A DNA stretch of 64,000 nucleotides from Patescibacteria group bacterium (GTDB taxonomy: Bacteria > Patescibacteriota > Saccharimonadia > CAILAD01 > JADZBC01), in the NCBI GenBank assembly GCA_052034495.1, contig JBPOIL010000003.1:18345-82344 (forward strand), given 5' to 3'. Shown piece by piece: positions 20,665-58,949 of this stretch. The translations under genes were made by a program, and so were the position numbers. How positions within the stretch are numbered: position 1 is the stretch's first letter; each line of letters starts with the position of its first letter. The notes beneath the pieces were generated by a model. The model searched no databases. It was not told the origin of the DNA and was given only the letters and a program-made list of their open reading frames with translations.

Positions 20665-21106
20665 AAGAGATAATTACTGTGCTGCAGTAGGTGGATGAGG
20701 CTCGAGCAGCGATGCCCTTACCTCACCCACCCACCGACGGTCTTGCCAATTGGCACTCGAACCAGCGAGCAGATTCTGCCCTTTCAAGCGTGGCTGCTTC
20801 TAAGCCAGGCTACTGGATGTCTTGGCGCCCTTCGACAAGAAGAGTGTTCATGGTTCCGATCGGCCCGGATGGCCACGACGTAAGCCTCGTTGTTACCGCT
20901 ATCAGCTGGCAACGAGATTGGTGTGTGCTTGTTTCCCCAGTCGACAAGGAGCTACCGATCACACCTACGGCTGCTTGGTGGACGTTCCACCGGTGTTACC
21001 GCAAGCGGTTACTGCAATATTGTAGCATAGGATCAAGAGCTTGTTTGAATAATAACGTTGGTGGCACTCGATGGTGCGTGAATGCACACCATCGAGGCCG
21101 GTTGGC

Positions 21107-21574
21107 CTACTTGCTGTCCTCGTCTGGGACGTCGGGGGCGGGTGCCCAGACGATGATCACGTGGTCCGTGCAGTGCCTGCTGGTGACCACGTCGAGGGCC
21201 GCCGGTGCGGCACGCCAGGCGACCCTGTAGCCGTCCTGCACGAGCATCTGCTCCACGAAGTCCTGCTCGCCCGAGGACAGGCGCACAGTCACTGTGACCT
21301 TGTGATCCGGGTCCTGAGCGGCGATGATCTCCTGCCGGATGGCGTCGGTGATCTTGGCGAACTCCAGCTCCAGGCTGTTGGGCTCGTGGGCGGCCAGCCA
21401 GCGCGCGCGGTAGGCGCTTGGCAGGTCGGACGCGAAGTAGCTGAGTCGAGCGTCGCTGGGCACCTCGCGCAGAGCGGATGCCATGTCTTCCGCGAGGTTC
21501 ACACCCCCTGCTTCTCTCACCAGCTGCTGCCAGGCTTCGTTGCTCTCCCACACTGGGGCTTCGTCATCGTGCAT
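21107..21574 (-). CDS. High-GC islet gene: 155-aa hypothetical acidic protein
   Basis: ATG at 21572-21574 with the RBS AAGGAG seven nt upstream. The + strand ORFs (21071-21589) and the minus ORF 21033-21551 are Arg/Gly-rich antisense artefacts. Confidence 0.45.
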   Translation of the reverse strand: MHDDEAPVWESNEAWQQLVREAGGVNLAEDMASALREVPSDARLSYFASDLPSAYRARWLAAHEPNSLELEFAKITDAIRQEIIAAQDPDHKVTVTVRLSSGEQDFVEQMLVQDGYRVAWRAAPAALDVVTSRHCTDHVIIVWAPAPDVPDEDSK

Positions 21575-22068
21575 GTGCACACTCCTTGATCGGTTGTAGG
21601 CCAAACCCCATTATGCCTTGCTGCGAATAGGCCCGCAAGCATGATCTTTGTAGCTCTCCCCCGTGACATTCGAATATCCTGGACGTGGTTCGGAGTACTC
21701 AGAACAGAACGCTCGAGGATTGTCTGAGTCTGGCCCCAGGCGAGTCCCGTAGAGCACTTCTGTTTGAGTACGGAGAAGCACCGCCAAGAGATGAGCCCCA
21801 TGTCGCAAATACTTTTGACTACTTTTGGTATGTTCAAAAGTAGTAGGTATTGATTGTTTAGATTAAGTTACTTGTTCTTTTGAAAGGGCCAAAAGAACCT
21901 AAAGCCCTTCCGGCCATTGTCCTCGCATCAAGTGGTTCATTCAAGAAGAAATATATGGATTGATCTGCGGGGTTCGCTTGGATGCCAAGCTCTGCAATCC
22001 TCACTCATCCTTATATTCTTCTTTCACTCACGTCTTAAGCTGCGGGTGGCCGGGGCGGCAGTAAAGGC

Positions 22069-23349
22069 TTATTCCCCAGCGATGGCGTGCTTACCAAGCC
22101 GTAGCGGCGACTTCCATACACTACCATTCTCTGGCTCACCGAGTAGCCGTTGTGGCCGAACCAAGCAGCGGATAATTGCAACGATCTGCACCACGTTCAT
22201 AATGTAGAACACGAAATACATTGCCGGCACGTACAAGCTCAGGCTGGCTTTGCGTTTGGCGCTAATATGCTCGTCCGACCAAAGGGTGATCAGAATAATG
22301 CCCGAGATCGCCATGTAGGCGCCGAATAGTAGCCCGAAGGACAGCTGAGAAACTGACAGCGCCACCAGGTATAGCACGATGAGTGGTTCAATTATGAGGA
22401 GTATTTCTGCCAGGAACGCCATCGGCAGGCGGTAAAACGTTAGCATCTTACTGTATTGATTTGAACGCGCGAATGTAAGCCGCCGGAACTTAATGAGGTT
22501 CTGCAAGCTGCCAAGCTTCCAGCGATAGCGCTGGCTCATAAGAGCCCTGAAGCTTTGTACGCCTTCCGTCATGGCCAAGATGTCGGCACCGTAAACAATG
22601 CGGTGGTTCTTGTTGCCGAGCGCAGCTATCTTAAGGCTCAAGCTAATGTCTTCGGTGGCCGAATCAGTGTCGTAATGACCCACGCGCGACATCACGCTAC
22701 GGCGAAAAGTCGACGCCACCCCGCCGACAATAAATTCGCTATTAGTAATTGAATAAAACTTTTTGGACCGGTAGCCAATCATATGCTCAAAGCGCTGCAG
22801 TAGGCCGAGCACGCTGGCTTGGTGCAGAATGCGCACGTTGGCGGCTACACCCGCAACTTTAGGGTCGTCAAAGTAGCGCACCGCGCGGGAAATGGCATGG
22901 CGGTCAATGAACGAATCGGCGTCTAGCGTCATGACCAGTTCCCCGCGCGCGTAGCGGCGCAATGCTGAATTGAGCGCACGCGCCTTCCCGACGTTTTTAT
23001 GTTTGCTGACCAGCTGGAAACTTCGGGTAGGGTGCTTGGCTATGTAGGCCTCTACAATCTTGCGCGTATCGTCGGTCGAGGCATCGTTTACAATAACCAC
23101 TTGGGTTTTGCGATAGGTATTTACCCGAATCGATTCCAGACAACGCACAATGGTTAGTGCTTCATTATGGGCAGGTACCAAGACTGTTACGAGTGGTACG
23201 GCACGGTGCTTGCGGCGTTTGCCGCCACTATGCTGCTTCATAGCCCGCACGTCGTATATATTCGCACCGACCAAATAAAAGCCATAGTGTAGCATGCTGA
23301 TAATACTTAGCGTCACAAACAAATAGAATACAACTACGCCGATACTCAC
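22069..23349 (-). CDS. Processive family-2 glycosyltransferase (cellulose/PNAG/chitin-synthase-like, QxxRW)
   Basis: Multi-TM protein with DxD (TLDADS), VNDASTDDT and QRYRWKLGS (QxxRW) motifs; 4-nt overlap with the sortase upstream. Confidence 0.8.
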   Translation of the reverse strand: MSIGVVVFYLFVTLSIISMLHYGFYLVGANIYDVRAMKQHSGGKRRKHRAVPLVTVLVPAHNEALTIVRCLESIRVNTYRKTQVVIVNDASTDDTRKIVEAYIAKHPTRSFQLVSKHKNVGKARALNSALRRYARGELVMTLDADSFIDRHAISRAVRYFDDPKVAGVAANVRILHQASVLGLLQRFEHMIGYRSKKFYSITNSEFIVGGVASTFRRSVMSRVGHYDTDSATEDISLSLKIAALGNKNHRIVYGADILAMTEGVQSFRALMSQRYRWKLGSLQNLIKFRRLTFARSNQYSKMLTFYRLPMAFLAEILLIIEPLIVLYLVALSVSQLSFGLLFGAYMAISGIILITLWSDEHISAKRKASLSLYVPAMYFVFYIMNVVQIVAIIRCLVRPQRLLGEPENGSVWKSPLRLGKHAIAGE

Positions 23350-23924
23350 TCCTCTACCCTCGTCAGCTTAAATGATACGAGCAGTCGGTTCTGATCCCAT
23401 GTCCCCGAACATGTCTGCACGGTCAGGATGGGTGGCCCTGTGTAATAAAACAAGCGGTCATCATAGGGGTTGGTCTCGTAACGCGAGCTCATGGTGTATA
23501 CGAACCGATGGCCGCCTTCACCCAGCAGAATGAATTCATCGCCCTCGGCGAGTTCGCTCAGTCGGCCAAACACTGCCGGGTAGTTGTGTGCGTAAATAAA
23601 TGTGTTACCTTCTTTATTGTTGGCGCGCGGCGTAATGGTCGCCCACTGCGCACGCGTGTTGCTCAGGTTCCAAGTTTTTGATACGGGGTTATAGAATCCC
23701 TCATCGATTTCCAAGAACAAATTCAGCTTTGGCACATATAAGCCAACTGGCCGCTCGGCTACTTTGTAGGTAACTGCGCCGGAGGATTTTGTTGCTGCGG
23801 TTGGCGCAGCGGCAGGCTTGGGTTGACGTGGGCTGAAGAGCTGGCTGTCTGCCTGGGCAGATAACACGAACCCGCCACCCAGGATCAGTGCTATGCCAAT
23901 GGTAAGAATCAATATACGTTTCAT
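23346..23924 (-). CDS. Sortase family transpeptidase (small, N-terminally membrane anchored)
   Basis: Signal/anchor MKRILILTIGIALILGGGFVLSA; catalytic His in IYAHNYPAVFGRL, Cys in LTVQTCSG (TLxTC) and downstream Arg (KLTR). Confidence 0.7.
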   Translation of the reverse strand: MKRILILTIGIALILGGGFVLSAQADSQLFSPRQPKPAAAPTAATKSSGAVTYKVAERPVGLYVPKLNLFLEIDEGFYNPVSKTWNLSNTRAQWATITPRANNKEGNTFIYAHNYPAVFGRLSELAEGDEFILLGEGGHRFVYTMSSRYETNPYDDRLFYYTGPPILTVQTCSGTWDQNRLLVSFKLTRVEE

Positions 23925-23960
23925 GATAATTCCTGCTAGAGCCCTCCACTCTAGTCCGGC

Positions 23961-24167
23961 TTACTTGTAAGCCTTGTGTGCCATACTGCGCCAAACTGTG
24001 CTGGCTACAATGGCAGTGCCGACTGCGATGCTAACGGCCGCTAGGGCGTCGATCATCCACAGTGCACCGGTATTTGGTAGAACGATTGCTGCTGTGGTTG
24101 TAGCTGCTGCAACTGCACCAGCGCCACCACTTGTGCCACCGCCCCCACCACCCATACCTCCGTACAT
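23961..24167 (-). CDS. 68-aa Gly/Ala/Thr-rich mini-protein ending in a complete sortase sorting signal (LPNTG, hydrophobic span, RSMAHKAYK)
   Basis: Strong RBS GAAGGAGG five nt before the ATG. The C-terminus is LPNTGALWMIDALAAVSIAVGTAIVASTVW followed by a basic tail; no N-terminal signal peptide. It is the first gene of a peptide-sortase-GT2 operon. Confidence 0.6.
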   Translation of the reverse strand: MYGGMGGGGGGTSGGAGAVAAATTTAAIVLPNTGALWMIDALAAVSIAVGTAIVASTVWRSMAHKAYK

Positions 24168-24324
24168 GGTGACCTCCTTCGGGCATTAAAAAAGAGGGCA
24201 ATTGCGCGACCATTTACCACCTAAGTGACAAATGAATCAGGCAATTCACCCTCTGATATCCATAATACGCCCTACTTGCTATCAAGTAAACAACATTGTA
24301 TAACTGCTTATGCTTCAGGCTAGG

Positions 24325-26049
24325 TTATGGCTTTGCGAACCAGCGTACGGAATCAATGTGGCCACTTGTTCCGCTGTTGCCAGCTACGATCATTTGCCAG
24401 CTTGCCTTGGCAACGGCCGCGCTCGTCGGCGTGTAGTCAAAGCTATAGTCTCCGCTGTAGGTCTGCCCTATGCTGGCCTTGTACTGGCCACTTATCCAGT
24501 TGCCCGCTGCGTCGTATTCGTCGATGTAGAAGCCCACTACCCCGCTCGTAATTGCCTCAACTGATAACCACTGTTTAATCTGGTATGTTTTTGTAGCTTC
24601 CAAACGAACGACTGGCGAGAATAGATGGCTATTGGCCGCGGTCGCTGTAAAGGCCATTGCTGACTGGTTGGGCTGACCGCCTAGCGTTGCGATAACTGCC
24701 GATATGCTCGACGGGCTGCCTGTGCGCCAGCCATCACTCAGTCCGCCCTCGAAGCCGCCATTTGGCATTATGTTTACCGGTTCTGGAGTTGGTTCGGGCA
24801 CAGGCGGTGGGGTAACTTCTCGACCCTGGCTGATCCACTGGACGTTATCTATGAATGCCTTCGCGCCAGAGTTGGCAGTGACAAACACTTGCAAGCGAGC
24901 CTGAGCTACTGCAATCGAGGTTGGTACGTATTCAAAGTTGAGGTTCTCTACAAACACGCTGTTTTCGCCGCGCTTATATTGACCACTAATCCAGTTGCCG
25001 GCCGCGTCGTATTCATCGATGTAGAAGCCGACTTCCCCACTGGCAATCCGTACTACGTTCAAGAAGCTCTTAATTACGTAGGCCTGCCCGGCCTGGATAT
25101 CGACTTTGGGCGCAAACAAATGCTTGTTGGTGGTACCACTATTTATCTCGGTTGATTGTGCAGCATTCGGATAGCTCCCCTTGTTTTGGGTATTCGGCTT
25201 AATGAGTGCTGGTGCGTCAGTTGTCCAGCCAGCTCCAAGCCCACTCGTGAAGTCGCCATTCGGTAGTAAGTTTTGCCCACTCGCCAACCCGCGACTCACG
25301 GTCGTGGACGCTACCCCTTGTGCTGCCGCATAGGCCGCAATTGCCTCTAGGTCGGCACTGCTGTATTGAAAGTCGTTCGGATCAGCGCTTGGCGTGGGGC
25401 TAATGTCGTGGAAGGCCAAGATCAGCCACAGATTATTAGCCTTGGCGTGGTCGATGTAGCTCTTTACTTGATCAACCGACACCCCGGCCTGGACTTGCTG
25501 CACATAGAGCAAGTAGTCGTTGTATGGGAAGCTATTGTAGCCGGTGTCGGCAAAGCCGCGGTGCGATGAGTAGCTGCGTGCTACGGCTGCAACTACGTTA
25601 TTGTTGTAATCGCCGTACGGTGAGCAGTAGGCATCGGCCGTAATGCCGCGGCTGGTTAGGGCGTTCTTGCTATTAATGAGTTCTTGGCTTACCTTGGCGG
25701 CCGTAAGCGTAGTCATAGCCTTGTGCGTTACAGTATGGCTACCGACTTCCCAGCCGTATTGGTCTTGCAAAGCTTTAATCTGTGTCCAGTTCATAAACCC
25801 AAAGCTTTTTTCGACCGGGCATTGTTTGGTCGGGGTGCCCACGCAGCTTGTTATAGGATAGCTGGTACCAACCAAGCCGTACTTGGCGAGCGTCGGTGCG
25901 GCTATAGCAAAGGTGCTTCTAAACCCGTCGTCGAAGGTAAAGCTGACCTGGGCGCTCGCCTGCGTCGCAGCATGTGCGCTCGGAGCAGCTACACTTAATA
26001 CCGCCACCCAGGCCAGGCTGATTATGATTTGTGCGAATCGCTTTTTCAT
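24325..26049 (-). CDS. Secreted carbohydrate esterase family 4 (NodB) polysaccharide deacetylase with two tandem C-terminal CBM-like jelly-roll repeats
   Basis: Signal peptide MKKRFAQIIISLAWVAVLSVAAPSAHA; CE4 motifs TFDDGF and HTVTH; two ~140-aa repeats (NGDFTSGLGAGW...GFYIDEYDAAGNWISGQYK and NGGFEGGLSDGW...GFYIDEYDAAGNWISGQYK) that are also ~90% identical at DNA level over short stretches. Confidence 0.75.
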   Translation of the reverse strand: MKKRFAQIIISLAWVAVLSVAAPSAHAATQASAQVSFTFDDGFRSTFAIAAPTLAKYGLVGTSYPITSCVGTPTKQCPVEKSFGFMNWTQIKALQDQYGWEVGSHTVTHKAMTTLTAAKVSQELINSKNALTSRGITADAYCSPYGDYNNNVVAAVARSYSSHRGFADTGYNSFPYNDYLLYVQQVQAGVSVDQVKSYIDHAKANNLWLILAFHDISPTPSADPNDFQYSSADLEAIAAYAAAQGVASTTVSRGLASGQNLLPNGDFTSGLGAGWTTDAPALIKPNTQNKGSYPNAAQSTEINSGTTNKHLFAPKVDIQAGQAYVIKSFLNVVRIASGEVGFYIDEYDAAGNWISGQYKRGENSVFVENLNFEYVPTSIAVAQARLQVFVTANSGAKAFIDNVQWISQGREVTPPPVPEPTPEPVNIMPNGGFEGGLSDGWRTGSPSSISAVIATLGGQPNQSAMAFTATAANSHLFSPVVRLEATKTYQIKQWLSVEAITSGVVGFYIDEYDAAGNWISGQYKASIGQTYSGDYSFDYTPTSAAVAKASWQMIVAGNSGTSGHIDSVRWFAKP

Positions 26050-35084: not shown

Positions 35085-36056
35085 TTATTTTTCCCAAGCA
35101 AACTCTTTGTGTCCGAAGTGTCCGTAGCGCGCCGTGGCTTCAAACTGCGGCTTCGTTAACTCAAGGACCTCAACAATGCCGCACGGCGACAGGTCGTATC
35201 CTACAATCTTTTCCTGAACGCCATCGATTAATACACTTGCTTCGAGGGGCTGATCGTGACCTATGGCGTATGCAAGCCTCGTAAATACCTCCTCGGCCCC
35301 GCGCGTACGTAAATAGTCGAGTGCAATCTTGCGTGCCATGTAGGCAGCCGAACGATCGACCTTACTTGCATCTTTGCCACTAAAGCAGCCACCGCCAATA
35401 GGAATACGCGGACCGTAGTTATCTACGACCAGCTTTCGGCCCGTAAGTCCGGTGTCAGCATCGAACCCGCCCTGCTGCCATTCGCCAGCTGGATTGGCAT
35501 GGATTTCAGGATTATCAATCGCATTCTTGTTGGTCAGCCAACTCGCGATAGAGGCTTTGAGTTCTTGAGTTTTTGAATTCTGAAAACTCGCCACTACGGC
35601 GATAATTTTGTCGTCCTGGAGGGTGACTTGAGTTTTGCCGTCATATGGCCATATGGCGTATAGGTACTGGTTGAGCTGGCGGCTCAACACAACCTCGAGC
35701 GGCAGGGCTTCGGGCGTCTCGGCGCAGGCATAGCCAATCATTATTCCCTGGTCTCCTGCTCCACCCGTATCAACGCACTGGGCAATTTCTGGGCTCTGGG
35801 CGACGATGTTCGTGGTGAGTGCAATGCCGCCTGCAATGCGCTTTGCAATTGGCACCACATCGACACTCGCCGAGCTGGTTACCTCGCCCATGATTACGAG
35901 CTGGCCGTGTCCACCGAGAGCCTCAACGGCGACGCGCGCCGTGGGGTCTTGAGCTAGGTAGGCATCCAGAATCGCGTCACTGATTTGGTCGCACAGTTTG
36001 TCGGGGTGTTTTGGGCTAACACTTTCGGCGGTTCGTAGGTTAGTTAGTTTGGTCAT
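35085..36056 (-). CDS. metK: S-adenosylmethionine synthetase
   Basis: The ATG at 36054-36056 follows AAAGGAG and eight nt (MTKLTNLRTAE...). Motif GGGCFSGKDASKVDRSAAYMARKIA matches MetK. The product is 323 aa, short for the family. Confidence 0.85.
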   Translation of the reverse strand: MTKLTNLRTAESVSPKHPDKLCDQISDAILDAYLAQDPTARVAVEALGGHGQLVIMGEVTSSASVDVVPIAKRIAGGIALTTNIVAQSPEIAQCVDTGGAGDQGIMIGYACAETPEALPLEVVLSRQLNQYLYAIWPYDGKTQVTLQDDKIIAVVASFQNSKTQELKASIASWLTNKNAIDNPEIHANPAGEWQQGGFDADTGLTGRKLVVDNYGPRIPIGGGCFSGKDASKVDRSAAYMARKIALDYLRTRGAEEVFTRLAYAIGHDQPLEASVLIDGVQEKIVGYDLSPCGIVEVLELTKPQFEATARYGHFGHKEFAWEK

Positions 36057-36119
36057 AAAAAATACTCCTTTCGTATCGTCCCCGCCACCGGCAGGAAAAA
36101 GGAGTTTAGCGCAAATGCA

Positions 36120-36226
36120 TACACTTATCTTTCCCACACTGGGCTAGAAGGGGCACCGTTCTGACTGTTCAGATGGTTGCCGGCAGGTCATAAAGCTAGA
36201 TCTCTCGCTGCACTCTTGATACTTGG
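36120..36226 (-). promoter_or_regulatory. SAM-I (S-box) riboswitch-like leader of metK
   Basis: The minus-strand leader reads ...AGUAUCAAGAG...CCUGCCGGCAACC...ACGGUGCC...GAAAGAUAAGU..., matching the S-box blocks CUUAUCAAGAG, CCCGGCAACC, GGUGCC and GAAAGAUGAG. Downstream, AAACUCCUUUUUCC can pair with the metK RBS AAAGGAG. Confidence 0.55.
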
Positions 36227-41594: not shown

Positions 41595-42071
41595 TTAGCC
41601 GATCTTGATGCCTGGCTCAGTTTGTGAGTCAGGTTTTTTCGAGTCTTTCGATGCCTTGAGCTCTAGGCCGACTTCTTGCATATCCTCCACTGCAGCTTCG
41701 TGGTATTTTTCCTGGTTGCGTCCATAATGCCTTGTGGCCTTGCTGAGCTCTCTGTTGTAGTCTTGTTGCCTTTCCGTAACCAGCTCAGCTGCAGCTCTGG
41801 CATCTTGCTCCATCCTGGGCTCTAGTTTTGCCTTTGATTCGGCCTCTGCTTTGAGCGCTATTTGCTGTTGCCGGGGGTCTTTGAAGTTGGTCATAGCTGA
41901 CTGTACTCTGGCTTCTTGGCGAGCATGGATATGGTCATGTGACTGTTCGGTTGCTACTTGCCGCGCCTGCGCCGCGTCCAACTTTGCACTTGTAAATCTG
42001 TGCATACCATAAAGCATTCTCGCTTTGCGCTGGAATCGACTTCTCCTCCACTCCTGAAATCGCTTGAACAT
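41595..42071 (-). CDS. Hypothetical coiled-coil protein (158 aa, Q/E/K/R-rich)
   Basis: ORF in backbone GC with no recognised motif. Confidence 0.4.
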   Translation of the reverse strand: MFKRFQEWRRSRFQRKARMLYGMHRFTSAKLDAAQARQVATEQSHDHIHARQEARVQSAMTNFKDPRQQQIALKAEAESKAKLEPRMEQDARAAAELVTERQQDYNRELSKATRHYGRNQEKYHEAAVEDMQEVGLELKASKDSKKPDSQTEPGIKIG

Positions 42072-42113
42072 AGTTTGGGCCCTCCGTTTGTCGTAATTAT
42101 AGCATTAAATGAG

Positions 42114-42149
42114 GAAGGCCCGTTCTGCGCTGAAACAGAACGGGCCTTC
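42114..42149 (-). terminator. Strong hairpin terminator (GAAGGCCCGTTCTG, loop, CAGAACGGGCCTTC)
   Basis: 14-bp perfect stem located 23 nt downstream of the islet gene stop at 42172; a T-rich tract follows on the minus strand. Confidence 0.5.
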
Positions 42150-42171
42150 GAGGTTGTACTGCTCGACTTCG

Positions 42172-42558
42172 CTACCGGGGCTCGAACATCACCCCGAGGC
42201 TCCAGTGGCAGAACCACTTGCCCATGACCAGGTCCTTGCTGTGGACGAACGGTCGATCCGCGGGAGCAAGCTGGTTGAGCGCAGCGTGTGCGGTTGCCGG
42301 CTTGGCCACAGCGCCATCGGGCATGATGCGCGTGAGCACCGGGTGGATCAGCAGCATCTGCGGGATGGTCATGCGACCATGGCAGCCGCGCTTGGTGCGA
42401 TCTTCGGCGAAGAACAGGGTCAGCCGGGCGCGAACCCAGCCGCACTGGCCGTCGCGCTTGATCAGGCTGATGATCTCGGCACGTGAGTAGGCGTGCGACT
42501 GCACGGCGCGGGTATGAGCGGCTGTGACCGCCGTTTGGCGATCCAGGATTGCGGTCAA
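42172..42558 (-). CDS. High-GC islet gene: 129-aa hypothetical protein (TTG start)
   Basis: TTG at 42556-42558 preceded by GCAGGAGGT and six nt (MTAILDRQTAVTAAH...). The track's upstream TTG at 42582 has no spacer after its putative RBS. Confidence 0.45.
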   Translation of the reverse strand: MTAILDRQTAVTAAHTRAVQSHAYSRAEIISLIKRDGQCGWVRARLTLFFAEDRTKRGCHGRMTIPQMLLIHPVLTRIMPDGAVAKPATAHAALNQLAPADRPFVHSKDLVMGKWFCHWSLGVMFEPR

Positions 42559-42637
42559 GGTGTTACCTCCTGCAAATACCAACCCCCTCTGGGTTAGTGT
42601 GTTTTATACTACTCCTATACGGCGGGCAGTCAAGGTG

Positions 42638-42943
42638 TTAGTCGCGCGAACGTGGCATGAGTGCGGAGAGTGCCCAGCCAGCCAGAACATATAGACCTAT
42701 GGCAATGGGTATAACGATATTGAAGCCACTTGGCAGGGCTTTGGGCAGGCTAATGTACTGATCGAGCCAGGAAACTGGAATGAGCAGTACGGTGCTCCAG
42801 CTGTAAATTAGGCTTGTAAGTTTGCCTTCCGGGCTACGGCCAAATAGGTCGTAAGCAAAGCGTAGGAGCAACGTGGCGACAGAGCTGGCCACAAAGATCC
42901 AGATGATGCCACCGAGTATTCCGCTATTTGATCGTCGATTCAT
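42638..42943 (-). CDS. Small membrane protein (101 aa, two or three TM helices)
   Basis: Internal ATG at 42941-42943 (MNRRSNSGILGGIIWIFVASS...). The 5' extension of the track ORF runs into the high-GC islet on the wrong strand and is out-of-frame-like sequence. Confidence 0.4.
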   Translation of the reverse strand: MNRRSNSGILGGIIWIFVASSVATLLLRFAYDLFGRSPEGKLTSLIYSWSTVLLIPVSWLDQYISLPKALPSGFNIVIPIAIGLYVLAGWALSALMPRSRD

Positions 42944-42960
42944 AGTACTAGTATAGCAGT

Positions 42961-42990
42961 AAATCAAAACACCCTCGCATTGGAGGATGT
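42961..42990 (-). terminator. Intrinsic terminator for the islet gene 43053-43328 (ACATCCTC, loop, GAGGGTGT, then TTTTGATTT on the minus strand)
   Basis: 8-bp stem with one mismatch and a T-rich tail; also marks the left edge of the islet at 42.96-45.42 kb. Confidence 0.4.
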
Positions 42991-43052
42991 TTTGTAATAA
43001 TTGCTTGGGTTGTGGTGCGGTGGGGTCCGAAGACTCCACCGCACCTCGCACC

Positions 43053-43328
43053 TCAGGCCGCTCGCGACTCGTCCCATGGCATATCCATGGGTGTGTCGGG
43101 GTCGGGTTCTGGCGAGTAGTCGTGCTGTTCCTTGCCGAGCCTCCAGGAGGCCCAGCTGAAGAACGCGCAGCAGGCTGCGCAGAACACGAATGCGAGCAGG
43201 CCCGTGAGCGTGCCGACCATCGCCCCGCCGTTGCCACTGGCATCGACGGTGTTGCGGTCCTCGCTGAAGAGCAGGACGAAGGCCATGAGGCCGAAGCCAA
43301 CTGCTGCGATACGTGCTGCTTGTGCCAT
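43053..43328 (-). CDS. High-GC islet gene: 91-aa two-TM membrane protein
   Basis: ATG at 43326-43328 with a strong RBS AAGGAGGTG; MAQAARIAAVGFGLMAFVLLF...LTGLLAFVFCAACCAFF. Confidence 0.5.
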   Translation of the reverse strand: MAQAARIAAVGFGLMAFVLLFSEDRNTVDASGNGGAMVGTLTGLLAFVFCAACCAFFSWASWRLGKEQHDYSPEPDPDTPMDMPWDESRAA

Positions 43329-43543
43329 GCGGCACCTCCTTGTTTGGTGCGGGTTTGGAGCCCGCGACGACTTGCCGGCGGACACCGAACTTGTATATTC
43401 TAGCATAAGCATAAGCATTTGTCAATATATCTGGCAACTGTGATGTCCTGGTTGTGCTTGTTATTCTTAGCACTGGAAGCTATAACTAAATCACAGTACG
43501 CAATCGGCGGCTGGAAGGTACCTTCGATCACATAGGAGTAGCC

Positions 43544-44233
43544 ATGGAGCTGACAAGCATGGAGAAAAGACGGCGGGCTTGGGCCGCAGAGCAGGACCCA
43601 CCACTGGTCACAGTGCAACAGGTGGCCGAGATGCTGGGTCACCAGCGCGGTACGTACGTGCGGCGGATCATGGCACATTACGAGGTCCCTCATCTGCTCT
43701 CTGACTCCAGGGACGCGGATTTCCGAGAGGGCGACGGCTACTATCCATTGCTGGAGGCTCGAGCCGCAGTGGGTAAGTACTTGGTCGATAGGCCACGTAT
43801 GCCCGGTACCCGAACCGCTGGTCCGAAGCCGGCAAGTGCGCTTACCCGCCTGGGTGGCGTGACTGTGCCGTTGTCGGCTCCGCACGGTTGGACCCTCGAT
43901 CAGCTCAAAATCTGCTGGAAGGATTCCCCAGACATGCGGGGCGTCGTTGAGCAGATCTACGAGCGTTGTCCGTCCTTTACGCAACTGACCTTCGAGGAGG
44001 CCAAGGCCTTGGTTGTGGACTTGGCGCAACCAGACATGGCCCCGCAGCTGATGCATCCGCCCTACGAGCGAAGCGACTTCATGCGGGCCGCGAGAGAGCT
44101 GACTCGCGGCAAGCCGGATGAGCTCGCGCAGCTGACGAGGGTGTTGGAGGGCAAGTTCCACCTGCGCAACTTCTGCAGGATCAACCCGGGTCCGGCCGTG
44201 GCCGTCGTCCTCGAGCTCCTGCGCAGCAAGTAG
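43544..44233 (+). CDS. High-GC islet gene: 229-aa protein with an N-terminal HTH (excisionase/AlpA-like)
   Basis: RBS AGGAG; LVTVQQVAEMLGHQRGTYVRRIMA helix-turn-helix; terminator at 44266-44299. Confidence 0.5.
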   Translation: MELTSMEKRRRAWAAEQDPPLVTVQQVAEMLGHQRGTYVRRIMAHYEVPHLLSDSRDADFREGDGYYPLLEARAAVGKYLVDRPRMPGTRTAGPKPASALTRLGGVTVPLSAPHGWTLDQLKICWKDSPDMRGVVEQIYERCPSFTQLTFEEAKALVVDLAQPDMAPQLMHPPYERSDFMRAARELTRGKPDELAQLTRVLEGKFHLRNFCRINPGPAVAVVLELLRSK

Positions 44234-44302
44234 CGCCGACAACCGAATAAGGGAAGTTCTTCACTCCCCTGGCGAATCACCGCCAGGGGGTTCGTTTTTA
44301 CA

Positions 44303-52894: not shown

Positions 52895-53227
52895 CTAGTG
52901 CAAGAGATCTTCGGGCGATACTTCGACGGGGGTTTCCCCGTCCATGCGGTAGAAAATTACCTTGTGAGTAAGCTCGCTGGCATCATAGAGCACATGCGAA
53001 CTGGTTGCAACTCCAGTTTTGTTATAGGTAGTCTTCTTATCCACAATTGCTGGCGAGCTAATTCGCTCGATGCGGTAAGGCTGCCCACCACGCACAAAGT
53101 CTACGCGGTCGACTGTACTCCTGAGCTCGCGCTCCCCCTCAATTGCTTCCTCGAACTTGCGAGAGTGAGTAATGCCAAAATTAACGTCTATTCGATCAAT
53201 CAGGTCCTCCCAGGCTCGATCGCTCAT
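52895..53227 (-). CDS. Hypothetical protein (110 aa)
   Basis: ORF overlapping the upstream gene stop by 4 nt. Confidence 0.4.
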   Translation of the reverse strand: MSDRAWEDLIDRIDVNFGITHSRKFEEAIEGERELRSTVDRVDFVRGGQPYRIERISSPAIVDKKTTYNKTGVATSSHVLYDASELTHKVIFYRMDGETPVEVSPEDLLH

Positions 53228-54576
53228 AGGCTCGTGGCTAGCTTGATGACCTGATCCTGGCTTAAGCCATGATCGCTACCCTCGATACGATACCACGTAC
53301 CATTGTTCACCCAGCTAGCCTGATTGCCGTCATATAGGTAGATGGTAAGCCCCTGGGCTTGAAGGGCGAGGTAATTGTCTGATTTTGGAGCTACGTAGTT
53401 TTCAGCCAAGGCCTGTGAATCCCAACTCGTCTTCGATTCACTAACCTGGACGGCCTTGTCGCTCTTGGTATTGGAGATGTTGTAGCTAATATTCCCAGGA
53501 GAAGACTGAATATTACCGCTAAGCTTCCACCCGCTCGGTATGTATCCGGGGAAATTAGCGCTAATACCGGCTTTACTGCCCGCTACCTTTAGTGCGAGGT
53601 TTGGATAATTAACCTGCCATACATAGCCGCCAAGCAAAAGAAGGCCAACGAGGCTGAGCGCCACGCTACTCGCCTTTAGGCCTTTACCCGATTGTGTGGC
53701 TGGAGCAGGAGCTGCCTGACTGGTGGCATCCATAACAGAGGCTACTGCGGGCTGTGCTGGCGCAGCCTGGGCTGGTGCTGGGCTAGGCAATGGCTGGGCA
53801 GTAGGAGTCTGGCTGGGTACCGCAGATGTAGCGGGCATAGAGACAGGAGCTGCGGTAGGTATAGCCGCTGCAACCGTGCTTGGTGGTACTGGGGCGGGAG
53901 CTTGGGCAACGGGGGCGGGTTGTGCCCCGGGGCGAATGTCGCTAACTGCCTTCGGTAGCTTTGCCGATGAGGTCTGTGTTAGGTCTAGCTTGTAACTTGA
54001 CTGTTTTGGTGCCGCGGGCTCATCTTCAGGAGGGACTGTGGGCATTACTAGGTCCGAAGATGTATTCGCTAGTGCGTCAAGCGTTTCGTCGCTCATTACG
54101 GATTCACCTACTTTATCGTTCAGGGATCCCATTTCACTGTTAGACTTGTCTTCAGGTAATTCTGCCGACGCACTCGTGTCTTCGGAGCTAAACTTGGCAA
54201 TGCTCGGGCTTGATTGAGTGGATAGTGCGCTGTCCAGCTGGTCGGCCTTTAAGCGAGTCTGTACGGTGTCTTGAGCTGCTGTCGACTCCGAGCCGACTGT
54301 AGTCTGCGCTAAGCCGGGCATTTTATCTGCCAATTGTGCACTTACTGTAGGCATTTGAACAGAAGATATGTCAGAGGTAGCATGTGGTGCCACAGAGAGG
54401 CTCGGCGCCGGCGTAGATGATTGCTGAACCGATGGGTCGGCCTGCGCTGCTGACTGGGGTGTTCCGCAGTTCGCACAGAATGTCTTTCCGGCAATACTAA
54501 TTGTGTCCTGCTCGCTGCAGTTTGTACAATTTTGCGTAGTATTTCCTGTCTGATTCACACTGTCACCCTCACCCAT
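53224..54576 (-). CDS. Zinc-ribbon, disordered linker, single-TM, extracytoplasmic-domain protein (anti-sigma-factor-like topology)
   Basis: N-terminal CTNCSEQDTISIAGKTFCANCG, long S/A/P/Q-rich linker, TM ASSVALSLVGLLLLGGYVW and a C-terminal ~130-aa domain. Confidence 0.5.
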   Translation of the reverse strand: MGEGDSVNQTGNTTQNCTNCSEQDTISIAGKTFCANCGTPQSAAQADPSVQQSSTPAPSLSVAPHATSDISSVQMPTVSAQLADKMPGLAQTTVGSESTAAQDTVQTRLKADQLDSALSTQSSPSIAKFSSEDTSASAELPEDKSNSEMGSLNDKVGESVMSDETLDALANTSSDLVMPTVPPEDEPAAPKQSSYKLDLTQTSSAKLPKAVSDIRPGAQPAPVAQAPAPVPPSTVAAAIPTAAPVSMPATSAVPSQTPTAQPLPSPAPAQAAPAQPAVASVMDATSQAAPAPATQSGKGLKASSVALSLVGLLLLGGYVWQVNYPNLALKVAGSKAGISANFPGYIPSGWKLSGNIQSSPGNISYNISNTKSDKAVQVSESKTSWDSQALAENYVAPKSDNYLALQAQGLTIYLYDGNQASWVNNGTWYRIEGSDHGLSQDQVIKLATSL

Positions 54577-54630
54577 CCATGGTTATCTTAAGGTCATTCT
54601 ACACGAGATAAGCATGAGCGTAAAGAGGAA

Positions 54631-55524
54631 TTAGCCGCTTTTGACACTCCAATTTTTTCTAGCCTGTCTATGTACGGCCAAAATAAAACGAGGAATTGCT
54701 GCTTGTCGAATAATTCTGCTAGGCTGGCGCACAAGTCGCCACAACCACTCGAGGCCAAAGCGCCTCACCCAGGCAGGTGCACGGCTTATGGAACCCCCCA
54801 TTTCCTGGTAATCAAAGCTCCCTCCTTCTCCAATCATGACTTTAGCAAGACCGACCTCTCGAAATGTATCCATAAAGATCTCCTGACGCGGGAAGCCCAT
54901 GCCCACACATAGTAGGTCGAGCTTTTTTACTTGGATTTCCGGAATGACCTTAGACAATACCTTATCATTCTGCCAGGCTGTAAAGTCCATAGTCTTGGCG
55001 GAATTACTGTATCCGCTCCACACTTCTACTAAATCTAAGTCTGGCCAGCGCTTCCTCAGCTCACCTGCAATCACTTGTGGCGGATTTGTGCCGCCAATTA
55101 CCCCCACGCTCCAGCCTTCCTCTTGAGCACGATCAAACAATCTAGCCGTGTGCGTTATGCCGGCAAATTTTTCGGGCAGAATCTGGTCGCGCCAAGTATC
55201 TTTCTGGATCCAGCCCATGAGGCTGCGGACCAACTTGGCGAGACTTGGCTTTGTAGCAGGCTTGCCATACAGATAACTTGCGGCCCATTGAAGGGACACC
55301 CCGTCGGCCGCTACAAGATCCATTGTGCCCAAAATTGTTCGAACTTTAGGGTCGGTGTTGGCTTTTGACGCAAACTCAACATAGGGCTTAATCATGCAGA
55401 AAGATCTGCTGCTCTGCCCGCCTGTTATCTGCCTGGCCAAAGTATCTAATGATTCATCAATCGTAACAGCATCAATCTTCAAGCCCAGTATGTCATAACG
55501 ATTGGTTTTGTCTTGAGACTTCAT
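54631..55524 (-). CDS. WecB/TagA/CpsF family glycosyltransferase (GT26)
   Basis: YDILGLKIDAVTIDESLDTL...VAADGVSLQWAASYL family signature. Confidence 0.75.
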   Translation of the reverse strand: MKSQDKTNRYDILGLKIDAVTIDESLDTLARQITGGQSSRSFCMIKPYVEFASKANTDPKVRTILGTMDLVAADGVSLQWAASYLYGKPATKPSLAKLVRSLMGWIQKDTWRDQILPEKFAGITHTARLFDRAQEEGWSVGVIGGTNPPQVIAGELRKRWPDLDLVEVWSGYSNSAKTMDFTAWQNDKVLSKVIPEIQVKKLDLLCVGMGFPRQEIFMDTFREVGLAKVMIGEGGSFDYQEMGGSISRAPAWVRRFGLEWLWRLVRQPSRIIRQAAIPRFILAVHRQARKNWSVKSG

Positions 55525-55531
55525 GAATCCA

Positions 55532-56644
55532 TCACCCCATCACCTTGGCAACATAATCGGATAAATTCTTTGCAAACTCTTCTTTGGTAAACTTTTCAGC
55601 AACTTGCTGGACTGCCTTTTGCTGCCAAGAAGTGTTTTCTGCGCGTAGCACGGCGGCTTTAAGCTCGCTCATGGTAGGGCGATCAAAGATAATGCCAGAT
55701 ACGCCTTCCTGAACCGTTTCCATGAGGCCCCCACCCTTCAATGCGATCACTGGAGTCCCGAACGACATAGCCTCGACTGGAGTTATCCCAAAATCTTCGA
55801 TACTAGGAAAGATAAAGGCTTCTGCGCCAGCCATGAGCTCGTCGCGTCTCTGATCGTTAACACGCCCCTCGAAGACAATATTCTCCGCACCTTCAGCTAA
55901 TGCCACAAGCCTCTCCCGGTCCGGCCCATCTCCGGCTATTACGAGGTTCTTCCCGCTTGATTTGAAAGCGATTACGGCTAAATCGATATTCTTATACCTA
56001 CTGAGCACCGAAAGAACCAGGTAGTAAGGCTCCTCGCTGGGCAAATGATCTCGAGCTGGAGCGTCTACGGGCGGATAGAGCACTGGTGCTTCAACCCCAT
56101 AGAACTTCTTAATCCTCCTGGCGATGTAGCGGCTATTGCCGACAATCAAGTCAATATTACTCGCAGCATAATAGTCCCATAGGCGAAGCTGAGACGTCAT
56201 CTTGGTTATGAAGAACCTTTTTAGTGAGCCTAGCCATGAGTGCTTAATGTCTTTCGTATCGAGGTAGCCAGGCCAACTATCCCAAATCATTCGGGCCGGA
56301 GAATGACAATAAGACAGATGCTTAACCCCTTCCGGAATTCGCACGTTCTTTGACCAGGCAGTAGAGTTTGAAATCACCAAGTCGTAGCCAGCAAAATCAA
56401 ACGAAGCCACCGCTCGCCGCACAAGCGGCAGAAGGTATTGCGGGCGCTGCTTCAAGAAGCGTGGCATGTGCTGCAGGAATGACGTGCGGACCTTACGCAT
56501 GCCTAGGTATGGCCGGAACGTCTTACGATTGTAGGTAAGAGCAAAAAGATCGGCTTCGGGATACTGTTTCATAATCTCGAAGAGCACAAACTCCGCGCCA
56601 CCTACTTTTTGATTGAGCCAGTCATGCACAACTGCAACTCTCAT
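55532..56644 (-). CDS. Family-4 glycosyltransferase (GT-B)
   Basis: EGFGITPVEAMSFGTPVIA is the GT4 E-x7-E region. Confidence 0.8.
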   Translation of the reverse strand: MRVAVVHDWLNQKVGGAEFVLFEIMKQYPEADLFALTYNRKTFRPYLGMRKVRTSFLQHMPRFLKQRPQYLLPLVRRAVASFDFAGYDLVISNSTAWSKNVRIPEGVKHLSYCHSPARMIWDSWPGYLDTKDIKHSWLGSLKRFFITKMTSQLRLWDYYAASNIDLIVGNSRYIARRIKKFYGVEAPVLYPPVDAPARDHLPSEEPYYLVLSVLSRYKNIDLAVIAFKSSGKNLVIAGDGPDRERLVALAEGAENIVFEGRVNDQRRDELMAGAEAFIFPSIEDFGITPVEAMSFGTPVIALKGGGLMETVQEGVSGIIFDRPTMSELKAAVLRAENTSWQQKAVQQVAEKFTKEEFAKNLSDYVAKVMG

Positions 56645-57909
56645 GCGCTGCGGTTCCTCCCGATCCCCATCAAACTAAAAATAACAATCCCAAGCGTAGA
56701 ATCTGCCCAAGCGTGCAAGAACAGATTGGTAACAAGGAGGCCGCAAATGCTTGCTGCCAGAACTTGCCAAAAGAGGTCCTTGCTGCGTACCAGCTCAAAA
56801 ACATTTGCCCCAAAGAAGAGCAGGAATAATACAACGCCCAGAATACCGATTTCTATAGCTACCTGCAGATACCAGTTTTCAGTAATAACCGGCTGAGCGG
56901 AACGAAAGCTGGCAGGCCCAGCCGTACCGAGCCCATTGCCCCATGGGTGGTCTCTGACGGATTCAACTGCTGTATTGAGGGCAGTTATGCGGCCCGAATC
57001 CGAGCCTTCAATCTCTTGGGTCTGACTGTAGCGTCCGTGAAGCAAGAAGTATTGTAGCTGGGTATTCTGCAAACGAGCCGGCAATGTAGCGCTTATTGTT
57101 ATCAGCACAATTATGGCAGCGCCTACTAAGAAAGCAGTGGCGAACCTGATCAAGCGGTTGCCAAAAACGATTATTGCCACGAGAGCCGCAGTTGCCATTC
57201 CGAGCCAGGCACTGCGCGAAAACGAAAAAACAATACCAGAAAATGTCAGTATGGCACCAGCACCGAACTTAATCTGCTTCGTCCTGAAGAACATAGCGGC
57301 GCCTAAAAGTGTCGGCAGGATCAGGTAGGCGCCCATTTGGTTTGGACCGCCTAGAGTCGCGAAAGCTCGTATACTTTTTACTGCTGGGTCTACTAGTTGA
57401 AGTGGCCGAATCGTAACCTCACTGTACCCAATGGCACTCCACCAGTTCAAAGGAATTACGAACTCCTGCAGGATCGCCAATATTGAAACAACATATGCAG
57501 GCCACAGAATTAACTTACTTAGCGCACCCTCACTAAACTGCACTTTGCCCAACTGCATGATCAGATACAGTACCAAAGGCAATACAACCACTTTCAGCCC
57601 AAAAGCCGCCTGGACTGCCGGAACAGCTGAAATGATCGTGATAAATAGACCAAGGGCAATGAGCATAAGTGCACTAGTGTTAGCTGTGTCGAACCTAAAG
57701 GTGCGCCGCTTGGTTGATGCGAAGATGAAGACAGCCAAGCCGATCATGCCTATAATAAGCAGCTCTTTCCAGGCCTGCCAGTAAGCTTGGCCACCGATGA
57801 AGTACCCGAGAGAGATAGCCGCCATTGCATGAAACGGCATTCCAACCAAAAGTGCTACGACCCCGCCGTTCAGAACTCTAGATGGCAGTGTAGGTGTGGC
57901 AGATTTCAT
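56641..57909 (-). CDS. O-antigen ligase/polymerase-like (Wzy/WaaL family) polytopic membrane protein
   Basis: About 10-12 TM helices in a glycosyltransferase cluster with overlapping stop and start codons. Confidence 0.6.
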   Translation of the reverse strand: MKSATPTLPSRVLNGGVVALLVGMPFHAMAAISLGYFIGGQAYWQAWKELLIIGMIGLAVFIFASTKRRTFRFDTANTSALMLIALGLFITIISAVPAVQAAFGLKVVVLPLVLYLIMQLGKVQFSEGALSKLILWPAYVVSILAILQEFVIPLNWWSAIGYSEVTIRPLQLVDPAVKSIRAFATLGGPNQMGAYLILPTLLGAAMFFRTKQIKFGAGAILTFSGIVFSFSRSAWLGMATAALVAIIVFGNRLIRFATAFLVGAAIIVLITISATLPARLQNTQLQYFLLHGRYSQTQEIEGSDSGRITALNTAVESVRDHPWGNGLGTAGPASFRSAQPVITENWYLQVAIEIGILGVVLFLLFFGANVFELVRSKDLFWQVLAASICGLLVTNLFLHAWADSTLGIVIFSLMGIGRNRSA

Positions 57910-58913
57910 CGATTACTAATCACACTGCGCATGTAATCGTCTAGATTCTCAAGTGCGATCCCGGTGCCCTTTGCGACGCATAACAAGGGCTCCTCCGCCA
58001 CGTAGCTTGGAACCCCCGTTACCTTTGTCATGAGCTTGTCAATATTGCGCAGCAGAGCCCCGCCGCCCGTCATAACCATACCGCGATCTATAATGTCACT
58101 TGAAAGCTCCGGTGGTGTTTGCTCAAGTACCGCTCGAACTGCCAATATAATTTCATCAAGTGAATCACTCATTGCCTCGGTGATTTCAGTAGAGTTCAGT
58201 GTAATTGTTTTTGGCAGTCCAGCAACCATATCGCGGCCACGAATCTGCATAGTCATAGGCTTATCGAGTGGCAGGGCGCTGCCGATCTCTTTTTTTATTT
58301 CTTCGGCCGTTTGGTCCCCTACGACGAGGCTGTACTTTTTACGAACATAGTCTGCTATGGCTTGGTCGATCTTGTCACCACCTACGCGCACACTGTTCTG
58401 GGCTACGATGCCTCCGAGTGAGATAATTGCAACCTCGGTCGTTCCTCCACCGATATCTACTACCAAGTTTCCTGCTGGAGCAGCAATAGGCACCCCCGCT
58501 CCAATAGCTGCGGCAACCGGTTCGCGAATAATGTACGTGCGTTTGGCGCCTGCAGCAGAAGCAGCGTCGATAACTGCTCGCCGTTCAGTCGATGTAACTC
58601 CAGCCGGTACGCTAATCATCAGCTCGGGTCTTCCTAAACGGAAGCTACCGCTGACTTTATCAATGAAGTGTCGCAACATGGCCTGTGTAATTCGGTAGTC
58701 AGCTATTACGCCATCCTTCAGCGGCTTAGAAGCCGTGATAATGTCCGGCGTTCGACCCAGCATCTCGCGCGCCTCGTTGCCGATGGCGACTATCCGATTA
58801 TCATCTACACTGACTGCAACGACAGAAGGCTCGTTGGCGACAATGCCCTTTTTAGGAACATAAACAAGCGTGTTGGCAGTCCCTAGATCAATTGCAATGC
58901 GTTTTTTAAACAT
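57906..58913 (-). CDS. mreB: Rod shape-determining protein MreB
   Basis: IAIDLGTANTLVYVPKKGIVANEPSVVAV actin-fold N-terminus; 335 aa. Confidence 0.9.
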   Translation of the reverse strand: MFKKRIAIDLGTANTLVYVPKKGIVANEPSVVAVSVDDNRIVAIGNEAREMLGRTPDIITASKPLKDGVIADYRITQAMLRHFIDKVSGSFRLGRPELMISVPAGVTSTERRAVIDAASAAGAKRTYIIREPVAAAIGAGVPIAAPAGNLVVDIGGGTTEVAIISLGGIVAQNSVRVGGDKIDQAIADYVRKKYSLVVGDQTAEEIKKEIGSALPLDKPMTMQIRGRDMVAGLPKTITLNSTEITEAMSDSLDEIILAVRAVLEQTPPELSSDIIDRGMVMTGGGALLRNIDKLMTKVTGVPSYVAEEPLLCVAKGTGIALENLDDYMRSVISNR

Positions 58914-58949
58914 AGCCTTATTTTAGCAAGCGGATGAGGGCAAGGCCAG

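Follow-up and report, generated by a model that had tools for sequence, protein, structure and literature searches.

Small hydrophobic surface peptides that are anchored by a sortase and act together with a glycan made by a family 2 glycosyltransferase (GT2) are known from Streptomyces, in the form of the long chaplins with SrtE and the CslA glycan. Chaplins have a chaplin domain and are made with signal peptides, and the synthase is encoded apart from them rather than in one operon. The PEP-CTERM/exosortase (EpsH) system provides a second precedent, in which a sorting signal and its processing enzyme are set among the genes of exopolysaccharide loci (PMC1569441). In Actinomyces oris, the sortase substrate GspA is glycosylated by the LCP phosphotransferase LcpA (PMC6381275). 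Here we describe a locus in a 64-kb stretch of contig JBPOIL010000003.1 (hereafter, the window) from a soil or water member of Candidatus Saccharibacteria (TM7). It encodes a leaderless LPNTG mini-peptide, a small sortase, a processive GT2 synthase, and a secreted polysaccharide deacetylase of carbohydrate esterase family 4 (CE4). We judge the chances to be about even that these four genes form a cell-surface module whose product is a surface polysaccharide, partly deacetylated and either linked to or anchored by a peptide.

The minus strand carries all four genes. The mini-peptide gene (positions 23961 to 24167; 68 amino acids) is followed after 36 nucleotides (nt) by the small sortase gene (23346 to 23924; 192 amino acids), whose stop codon overlaps the GTG start of the GT2 synthase gene (22069 to 23349; 426 amino acids) by 4 nt (GTGA). 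The CE4 deacetylase gene (24325 to 26049; 574 amino acids) ends 157 nt upstream of the mini-peptide gene. Open reading frames (ORFs) were called mechanically, and the ORF listing and the raw sequence agree to the base with the coordinates given for all four in the original prediction, which had been made from the letters of the window. The prediction had also called the CE4 gene the next gene; the gene is real, but it sits upstream of the mini-peptide gene and not downstream of it. No terminator-like sites were found between the mini-peptide, sortase, and GT2 genes. The gap between the CE4 and mini-peptide genes holds a weak sigma-70-like promoter match (TTTACT-17-TATTAT, 24262 to 24290, minus strand), which is a candidate only, as such matches are no more frequent in the region than in shuffled sequence.

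The locus shares with LPXTG/sortase anchoring by the housekeeping enzymes of classes A and E an LPXTG-type motif, a transmembrane segment, a basic tail, and a membrane-anchored His-Cys-Arg transpeptidase of the sortase fold. It differs in that the substrate has neither a signal peptide nor a folded cargo, being essentially a linker plus a sorting signal, and in that the sortase gene is translationally coupled to that of a polysaccharide synthase. The original prediction had set the locus apart from the LPXTG-adhesin and pilus systems, and the missing cargo, the missing signal peptide, and the absence of a conserved pilin lysine all bear this out. With the poly-N-acetylglucosamine systems IcaADBC and PgaABCD it has in common a membrane GT2 bearing the D, DxD, TED, and QxxRW motifs and an extracellular CE4 enzyme; a sortase and a mini-peptide stand in place of the other partners, and no IcaD, PgaD, IcaC, or PgaA was seen in the related loci among ORFs of at least 70 amino acids. 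The PEP-CTERM/EpsH and XrtG systems likewise place a C-terminal sorting signal and its enzyme among glycosyltransferase and polysaccharide deacetylase genes. In contrast to PEP-CTERM/EpsH, the enzyme here is a true sortase, the motif is LPNTG rather than PEP, and a single tiny substrate per locus takes the place of many proteins. The GspA-LcpA-SrtA system of A. oris resembles the locus as a case in which a sortase substrate takes a glycopolymer to the wall, which shows that a single pathway can serve both sortase anchoring and the attachment of a glycan. It differs in that the loci here have no conserved LCP gene, and their glycan enzyme is a GT2 of the synthase type. GspA is a secreted protein of normal size.

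The four-gene arrangement recurs in dozens of species, far beyond chance. A scan with the sortase, taking one genome per species, gave 130 relatives, and the best 80 of these 130 loci were analyzed by scripts. The 80 are all from metagenome-assembled genomes, nearly all labeled Candidatus Saccharibacteria or Saccharimonadales, a few just "bacterium" or "uncultured bacterium." An LPXTG mini-ORF was found upstream of the sortase in 62 of the 77 loci with enough sequence, and inspection added two more, L018 and L046. In 57 of 76 loci, the gene directly 3' of the sortase encodes a PgaC-like GT2 (at least 35% amino acid identity), and the full order of mini-peptide, sortase, and GT2 was found in 52 loci by script and in about 55 after inspection. 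In each of the 58 loci measured, no more than 10 nt separate the sortase stop from the GT2 start (median, -1). Clustering of the neighboring genes returned only four families common to most loci, namely the sortase (53/53), the GT2 (53/53), the CE4 enzyme (49/53), and the mini-peptide. The CE4 gene is within 10 kb of the sortase in those 49 of the 53 core loci, usually just upstream, and within 3 kb in 43 of 52. None of the additional partners looked for (LCP, IcaD/PgaD-like, transporter, or regulator genes) was conserved among the ORFs of the size given above. The co-conservation that the prediction requires of the genes is thus seen in about 55 Saccharibacteria species, with the coupling of sortase and GT2 always kept, and we propose that the module is specific to Saccharibacteria.

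The link also holds in the opposite direction. In a metagenome scan anchored on the GT2, the sortase was directly upstream in 9/9 orthologues (at least 44% identity), a small set, and the mini-peptide was present in 7/7 of those with enough upstream sequence. Beside GT2 homologues of 26 to 39% identity from the same scan, a sortase was found in 0/70. Many of the metagenome GT2 homologues of about 30% identity (L099 to L160) lie in ORFs of about 2.9 to 3.7 kb by the longest-ORF rule, which suggests fusions with an extra N-terminal domain; none of them has a sortase nearby.

A tree of the sortases has three groups that differ by gene context. Group A, the majority, has the mini-peptide, the sortase, the PgaC-like GT2, and CE4. 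Group B, with about nine members, has the mini-peptide, a CE4-CBM gene next door, and a different GT2 (PF13632/PF13641) nearby on either strand. Eight were recognized by a mini-peptide with a membrane segment starting in "RPLF" or "KPFF" fashion, and L062 and the truncated L050 were assigned to the group by the sortase tree alone. As group B keeps the mini-peptide and CE4-CBM with another GT2, the logic of peptide, sortase, and glycan survives a change of synthase. Group C has neither the PgaC-like GT2 nor CE4 in its loci; canonical LPXTG proteins of 169 to 220 amino acids, five of them with clear signal peptides, are encoded directly upstream of the sortase. In loci L034, L043, L049, L051, L061, L065, and L074, whose sortases are distant relatives of the small one, this substrate gene occupies about 570 to 660 nt, its product is rich in Asn, Thr, Ser, and Gly, in some cases with a "TGPGSNN" motif, and there follows a protein of 376 to 391 amino acids with a weak GT2 signature or none. 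The group C arrangement may be the ancestral form of the module. Its substrates have the same Gly/Ala/Thr linker (GGMGGG, QTLGATTT) and A..AY[KR] tail as the mini-peptides, and for this reason the mini-peptide looks, by sequence, like what remains of an ancestral substrate, its linker and sorting signal, after the loss of signal peptide and body.

These comparisons bear on the simplest alternative, ordinary wall anchoring. Here the sortase would attach the peptide to lipid II or peptidoglycan, perhaps capping stem peptides or altering surface properties, and the GT2 and CE4 genes would be near only because envelope genes cluster, with no shared chemistry. The canonical LPXTG motif, transmembrane segment, basic tail, and sortase triad all agree with it, as do the normal LPXTG proteins of 170 to 220 amino acids with signal peptides that adjoin related sortases and the varying orientation of the CE4 gene. 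It also fits the presence of MurA and MurB, which with SHMT lie within a few kilobases downstream in about half of the loci, neighbors that look like lineage synteny. Set against these are the overlap or near-touch of sortase and GT2 in 58/58 measured loci, the reciprocity of the link, and its persistence through a change of GT2 subfamily, patterns that are hard to square with loose clustering in small, rearranging genomes. We regard ordinary anchoring as rather unlikely, while giving it serious weight. Since the genes remain so strictly coupled to those for a synthase and a deacetylase, and this with either of two GT2 subfamilies, we favor the reading in which peptide and polymer belong to one surface product.

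The mini-peptide itself has the sequence MYGGMGGGGGGTSGGAGAVAAATTTAAIV-LPNTG-ALWMIDALAAVSIAVGTAIVASTVW-RSMAHKAYK. It starts with Met-Tyr and continues in an uncharged, Gly/Ala/Thr-rich N-terminal part of 29 amino acids, the LPNTG cleavage motif (residues 30 to 34; 24066 to 24080, minus strand, read from the sequence), a predicted transmembrane segment of about 25 residues (residues 35 to 59; 23991 to 24065, minus strand, from hydropathy and charge counts), and a predicted cytoplasmic basic tail, RSMAHKAYK (23964 to 23990, minus strand). The complete sorting signal claimed for the 68-amino-acid peptide is therefore present, and the order of LPXTG-type motif, hydrophobic segment, and basic tail was found in this peptide and throughout the 63 family members. 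The ATG is preceded at 7 codons by an in-frame TAA and at 5 nt by a GGAGG Shine-Dalgarno sequence (24173 to 24177, minus strand), so the peptide cannot be longer and has no signal peptide. Across the 63 members no signal peptide was found either, the N-terminal part being 8 to 29 residues without a basic n-region.

Family members are 51 to 68 amino acids long. In group A, residue 1 is Met in 100% and residue 2 is Tyr in 91%, and both Tyr codons are used, so conservation of the Met-Tyr start acts at the protein level. Gly, Ala, Val, and Thr make up the N-terminal part, in which none of the 63 members has more than one basic or more than one acidic residue. LPNTG is the motif in 49/63, with L, P, and T invariant in the 56 group A peptides; an LPNTH variant was found on inspection in L046. 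One Gly of the membrane segment is kept in 95% of members, and the tail has 2 to 5 Lys/Arg residues (3 to 5 in all but one of the 63). Nearly all of the 63 loci have a GGAG-type Shine-Dalgarno site at the same spot ahead of the Met-Tyr codons. Purifying selection is apparent in close pairs, the only ones used because a pooled dN/dS mixes saturated pairs: the proportions of synonymous (pS) and nonsynonymous (pN) differences are 0.17 and 0 to 0.02 for the window against L002 and 0.42 and 0.05 for L005 against L015. The absence of the peptide ORF from related genomes had been named as a result that would count against the prediction; as far as sequence can tell, the ORF is there, behind a Shine-Dalgarno site and under purifying selection.

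No Pfam or NCBIfam model, curated LPXTG anchor models included, matched the mini-peptide at an E value of 0.01 or less. A profile search of 1.84 billion representative proteins returned 67 relatives, all of 48 to 139 amino acids and 66 of them of at most 96; no large LPXTG protein was matched. Sources that hold the mini-peptide label it "hypothetical protein" or leave it nameless. A chance ORF or a wrong start was rejected on the in-frame upstream stop, the conserved Shine-Dalgarno site, the purifying selection, and the 67 mini-protein relatives. A hidden signal peptide or a hairpin topology was rejected since some members have only 8 to 11 residues ahead of the motif. Pilus-like polymerization was likewise rejected, as there is no conserved Lys (a Lys occurs in 23/56 peptides) and the N-terminal part is low-complexity sequence of 8 to 29 amino acids.

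Two further readings of the peptide hinge on which of its parts are conserved. It might be a regulator or subunit, either a pseudo-substrate that occupies the sortase or a source of a retained C-terminal fragment that acts on the synthase, comparable to IcaD/PgaD and to the signaling C-terminal peptides left by sortases. The tiny and variable cargo part, the well-kept membrane-segment Gly and tail, and the lack of an IcaD/PgaD-like gene among ORFs of at least 70 amino acids in the loci are compatible with such a role. The same tail motif, however, is found in large substrates of sortase relatives that have no PgaC-like GT2, and the Met-Tyr start and LPNTG are the most conserved features, which fits an N-terminal fragment that is cleaved and used; we consider a regulatory peptide improbable. 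Alternatively, the sortase might free or cyclize the N-terminal fragment as a diffusible signal or antimicrobial, the glycan genes being unrelated. A short, leaderless, ribosomally made peptide with a dedicated processing enzyme would suit this, and sortases are able to hydrolyze or cyclize substrates in vitro. We rate it as very improbable indeed, as the N-terminal part is low-complexity Gly/Ala/Thr/Val of variable length and unlike a receptor ligand, no transporter, immunity, or sensor gene is conserved nearby, and the coupling to the GT2 is left unexplained.

The small sortase matches PF04203 (bit score, 57.3, against a cutoff of 26.6; E = 1.7e-15). A word-indexed protein search found 23 homologues, in which His113, Cys172, and Arg180 are invariant (contexts GNTFIYGH and ILTVQTCSG), and the exact protein is recorded on only one other contig. 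Its AlphaFold2 model (pLDDT 82, and above 90 in the barrel) has an N-terminal membrane helix (residues 2 to 28), a disordered linker, and a catalytic barrel. Foldseek matched the model with probability 1.0 to many solved sortases, the best being of class E at 21 to 22% identity; the Streptomyces chaplin/SrtE system is alike in this respect, as the fold here is closest to class E. Against NCBIfam class cutoffs of 140 to 166, the highest scores were 21 bits for classes D and F and 17 bits for class E. Unlike the sortases of classes A and E, the enzyme falls below every NCBIfam class cutoff, and it thus belongs to an unclassified clade outside the named classes A to F, with class E nearest structurally. 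The motif, triad, and fold suggest that it may carry out cleavage and transpeptidation at LPNTG, and the peptide AAIVLPNTGALW is a candidate substrate for its catalytic domain (residues about 55 to 192).

A second sortase of 390 amino acids (61719 to 62891, minus strand; PF04203, E = 1.7e-30) passes the cutoff of the general sortase model TIGR01076 and is probably the housekeeping sortase of the genome. No LPXTG substrate was found beside it within the window, where the mini-peptide is the only sorting signal found. Given this canonical enzyme and this sole sorting signal in 64 kb, a housekeeping role for the small sortase is unlikely, and the enzyme looks like a dedicated, specialized extra one.

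The GT2 matches PF00535, PF13641, and PF13632, and D89, D143xD145, T232-E233-D234, and Q273RYRW277 are invariant in 37 homologues. Its AlphaFold2 model (pLDDT 84) has helices at 3 to 41 and 301 to 402, a GT-A domain being fused to channel-forming transmembrane helices, and Foldseek related it to Chlorella virus hyaluronan synthase (TM score, 0.64 to 0.70) as well as to PcManGT, BcsA, and Chs1. The best NCBIfam match is PgaC_IcaA (TIGR03937), over the full length (bit score, 170.6, against an equivalog cutoff of 422.3), followed by the XrtG-associated glycosyltransferase TIGR03111. Sequence and model support a predicted membrane-integrated synthase of the PgaC/IcaA/HAS/BcsA kind. The CE4 enzyme matches PF01522 (bit score, 64.7, against a cutoff of 23.1) and, through CBM_4_9, PF02018. 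In its 45 orthologues the motifs SFTFDDG, HxxxH (GsHtvtH), PYGDY, and FHDI and the two C-terminal CBM_4_9-like repeats are conserved, and the N-termini, like that of the window protein, resemble signal peptides. Its scores against the IcaB and PgaB equivalogs are 20.0 and 22.8 bits (cutoffs, 248 and 322), and its top NCBIfam match is HfsH (55 bits; cutoff, 400). A sequence search of solved structures with the CE4 protein gave no matches.

The family assignments of the original prediction (PF04203 for the sortase, PF13641/PF13632 for the GT2, PF01522 for CE4) were all recovered in these searches. The His/Cys/Arg triad, the QxxRW motif of a processive synthase, and the secreted CE4 enzyme with two CBM-like repeats had each been read correctly. 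The missing signal peptide, the second sortase of the window, and the affiliation with Saccharibacteria had not been part of the prediction. The likeness drawn to IcaA/IcaB and PgaC/PgaB stands for the kind of synthase and for the CE4 catalytic motifs, but not at the level of the equivalogs, whose cutoffs lie far above the scores of both proteins.

A pathway in three steps can be proposed for the module. From the distribution of charge and the short N-terminal part, the 68-amino-acid peptide is predicted to insert into the membrane without a signal peptide, its uncharged N-terminal part outside and its basic tail inside, as small N-out coat proteins do. The membrane-anchored sortase, its catalytic domain outside, would then cleave LPNT|G and hold the N-terminal fragment in thioester linkage to Cys172, as motif, triad, and fold suggest; this fragment has 33 residues here and 12 to 33 in the family as a whole. 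In the third step, which gene linkage alone suggests, the fragment would be passed to a surface amine in the same pathway as a polymer of the N-acetylglucosamine (GlcNAc) type. This polymer would be made and exported by the coupled GT2, with its catalytic domain inside and its channel through the membrane, and trimmed by the secreted CE4 enzyme; the product would plausibly be used for envelope structure or attachment.

More tentatively, the mini-peptide may become covalently joined to the polysaccharide. The original prediction had suggested such a peptide-primed or peptide-capped polymer from the linkage of the genes; we hold the idea to be possible but rather doubtful, and two routes can be imagined for it. 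In one, the nucleophile of the divergent sortase would be the free amines of glucosamine that the CE4 enzyme exposes, and the outcome a peptide-sugar amide. In the other, the GT2 would start the chain in the cytoplasm on Tyr2 or a nearby Thr and thread the uncharged N-terminal tail out with the glycan, and the sortase would finally graft the glycopeptide onto the wall; this second route would explain the missing signal peptide.

Several points weigh against the proposed module and its product. In vivo, sortases are not known to use any but peptide amines. The score of the GT2 is far below the PgaC/IcaA cutoff (170 versus 422), and the sugar is not assigned by the family match. The A..AY[KR] tail and the Gly/Ala/Thr linker are also found in ordinary large substrates and are not specific to loci with the synthase. 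The evidence as a whole consists of genes, sequences, and predicted folds. As for the deacetylase, its gene is on the same strand as the sortase in 29 loci and on the opposite strand in 23, and it is absent within 10 kb in 4/53; it is therefore linked but not always cotranscribed. A GH10 gene is a neighbor in 11 loci, and together with the CBM_4_9 modules this means that the CE4 enzyme could act on foreign glycans. On such a reading, the substrates of CE4-CBM would be peptidoglycan, chitin, or acetyl-xylan from a host or the environment rather than the GT2 product, and the module would consist of peptide, sortase, and GT2 only. The variable strand, the CBM repeats, and the GH10 neighbors speak for it, as does the attachment of Saccharibacteria to other bacteria that the literature describes. 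The closeness of CE4 to the sortase in most core loci, within 3 kb as given above, and its place beside the peptide and sortase genes of group B, where the GT2 is a different one, speak against it, and we find it unlikely that the deacetylase lies outside the module.

Other features of the window were recorded beside the four genes. Directly 3' of the GT2 gene, positions 20691 to 22004 (about 1.3 kb; GC content, 0.55) carry overlapping ORFs on both strands without family matches, which are almost never conserved in related loci and may be a decayed gene or foreign DNA. Another stretch, 41595 to 44242, is high in GC (0.54 to 0.58) and has Arg-rich overlapping minus-strand ORFs unlike the surrounding genes. 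An S-adenosylmethionine (SAM) riboswitch (RF00162; 36122 to 36225, minus strand; 50.7 bits against a gathering score of 44.4) lies upstream of a 350-amino-acid ORF (35085 to 36137). A cluster for wall glycopolymer and cell shape spans 53224 to 60203 on the minus strand, with a WecG/TagA-family transferase (54631 to 55524), a GT4 (55532 to 56644), and a Wzy_C/O-antigen-ligase-like protein (56641 to 57909), all on that strand; probable MreB and MurA, by N-terminal sequence, come after the Wzy_C protein. Near this cluster, a PEGA-domain protein is encoded on the plus strand (60319 to 61695).

In the literature on sortases of Saccharibacteria, TM7, and Patescibacteria, we found no description of the module, only general statements on TM7 sortases and sorted proteins. 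Each part falls in an established family; what the searched literature does not describe is a substrate without cargo or leader whose dedicated sortase is in turn coupled to a synthase. Saccharibacteria, which are ultra-small, spend their lives attached to other bacteria, and little is understood of the way in which they form their surface and cling to hosts. The module, with its previously unannotated mini-protein family, has been retained by dozens of species whose genomes are very small. It couples a sortase directly with a polysaccharide synthase, and such a connection has so far been known only by analogy from exosortase systems. The small sortase is also a possible candidate for short-tag ligation. 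If peptide and polymer are indeed joined, sortase chemistry would be extended, or a case of peptide-primed glycan export would be at hand. Should the route through glucosamine amines be the true one, this would be the first sortase to make a peptide-sugar amide bond in vivo. Either route would represent a new way of building or anchoring a bacterial surface polymer, and a joined product would give a concrete, testable entry point to the way in which the envelope is assembled in the candidate phyla radiation.

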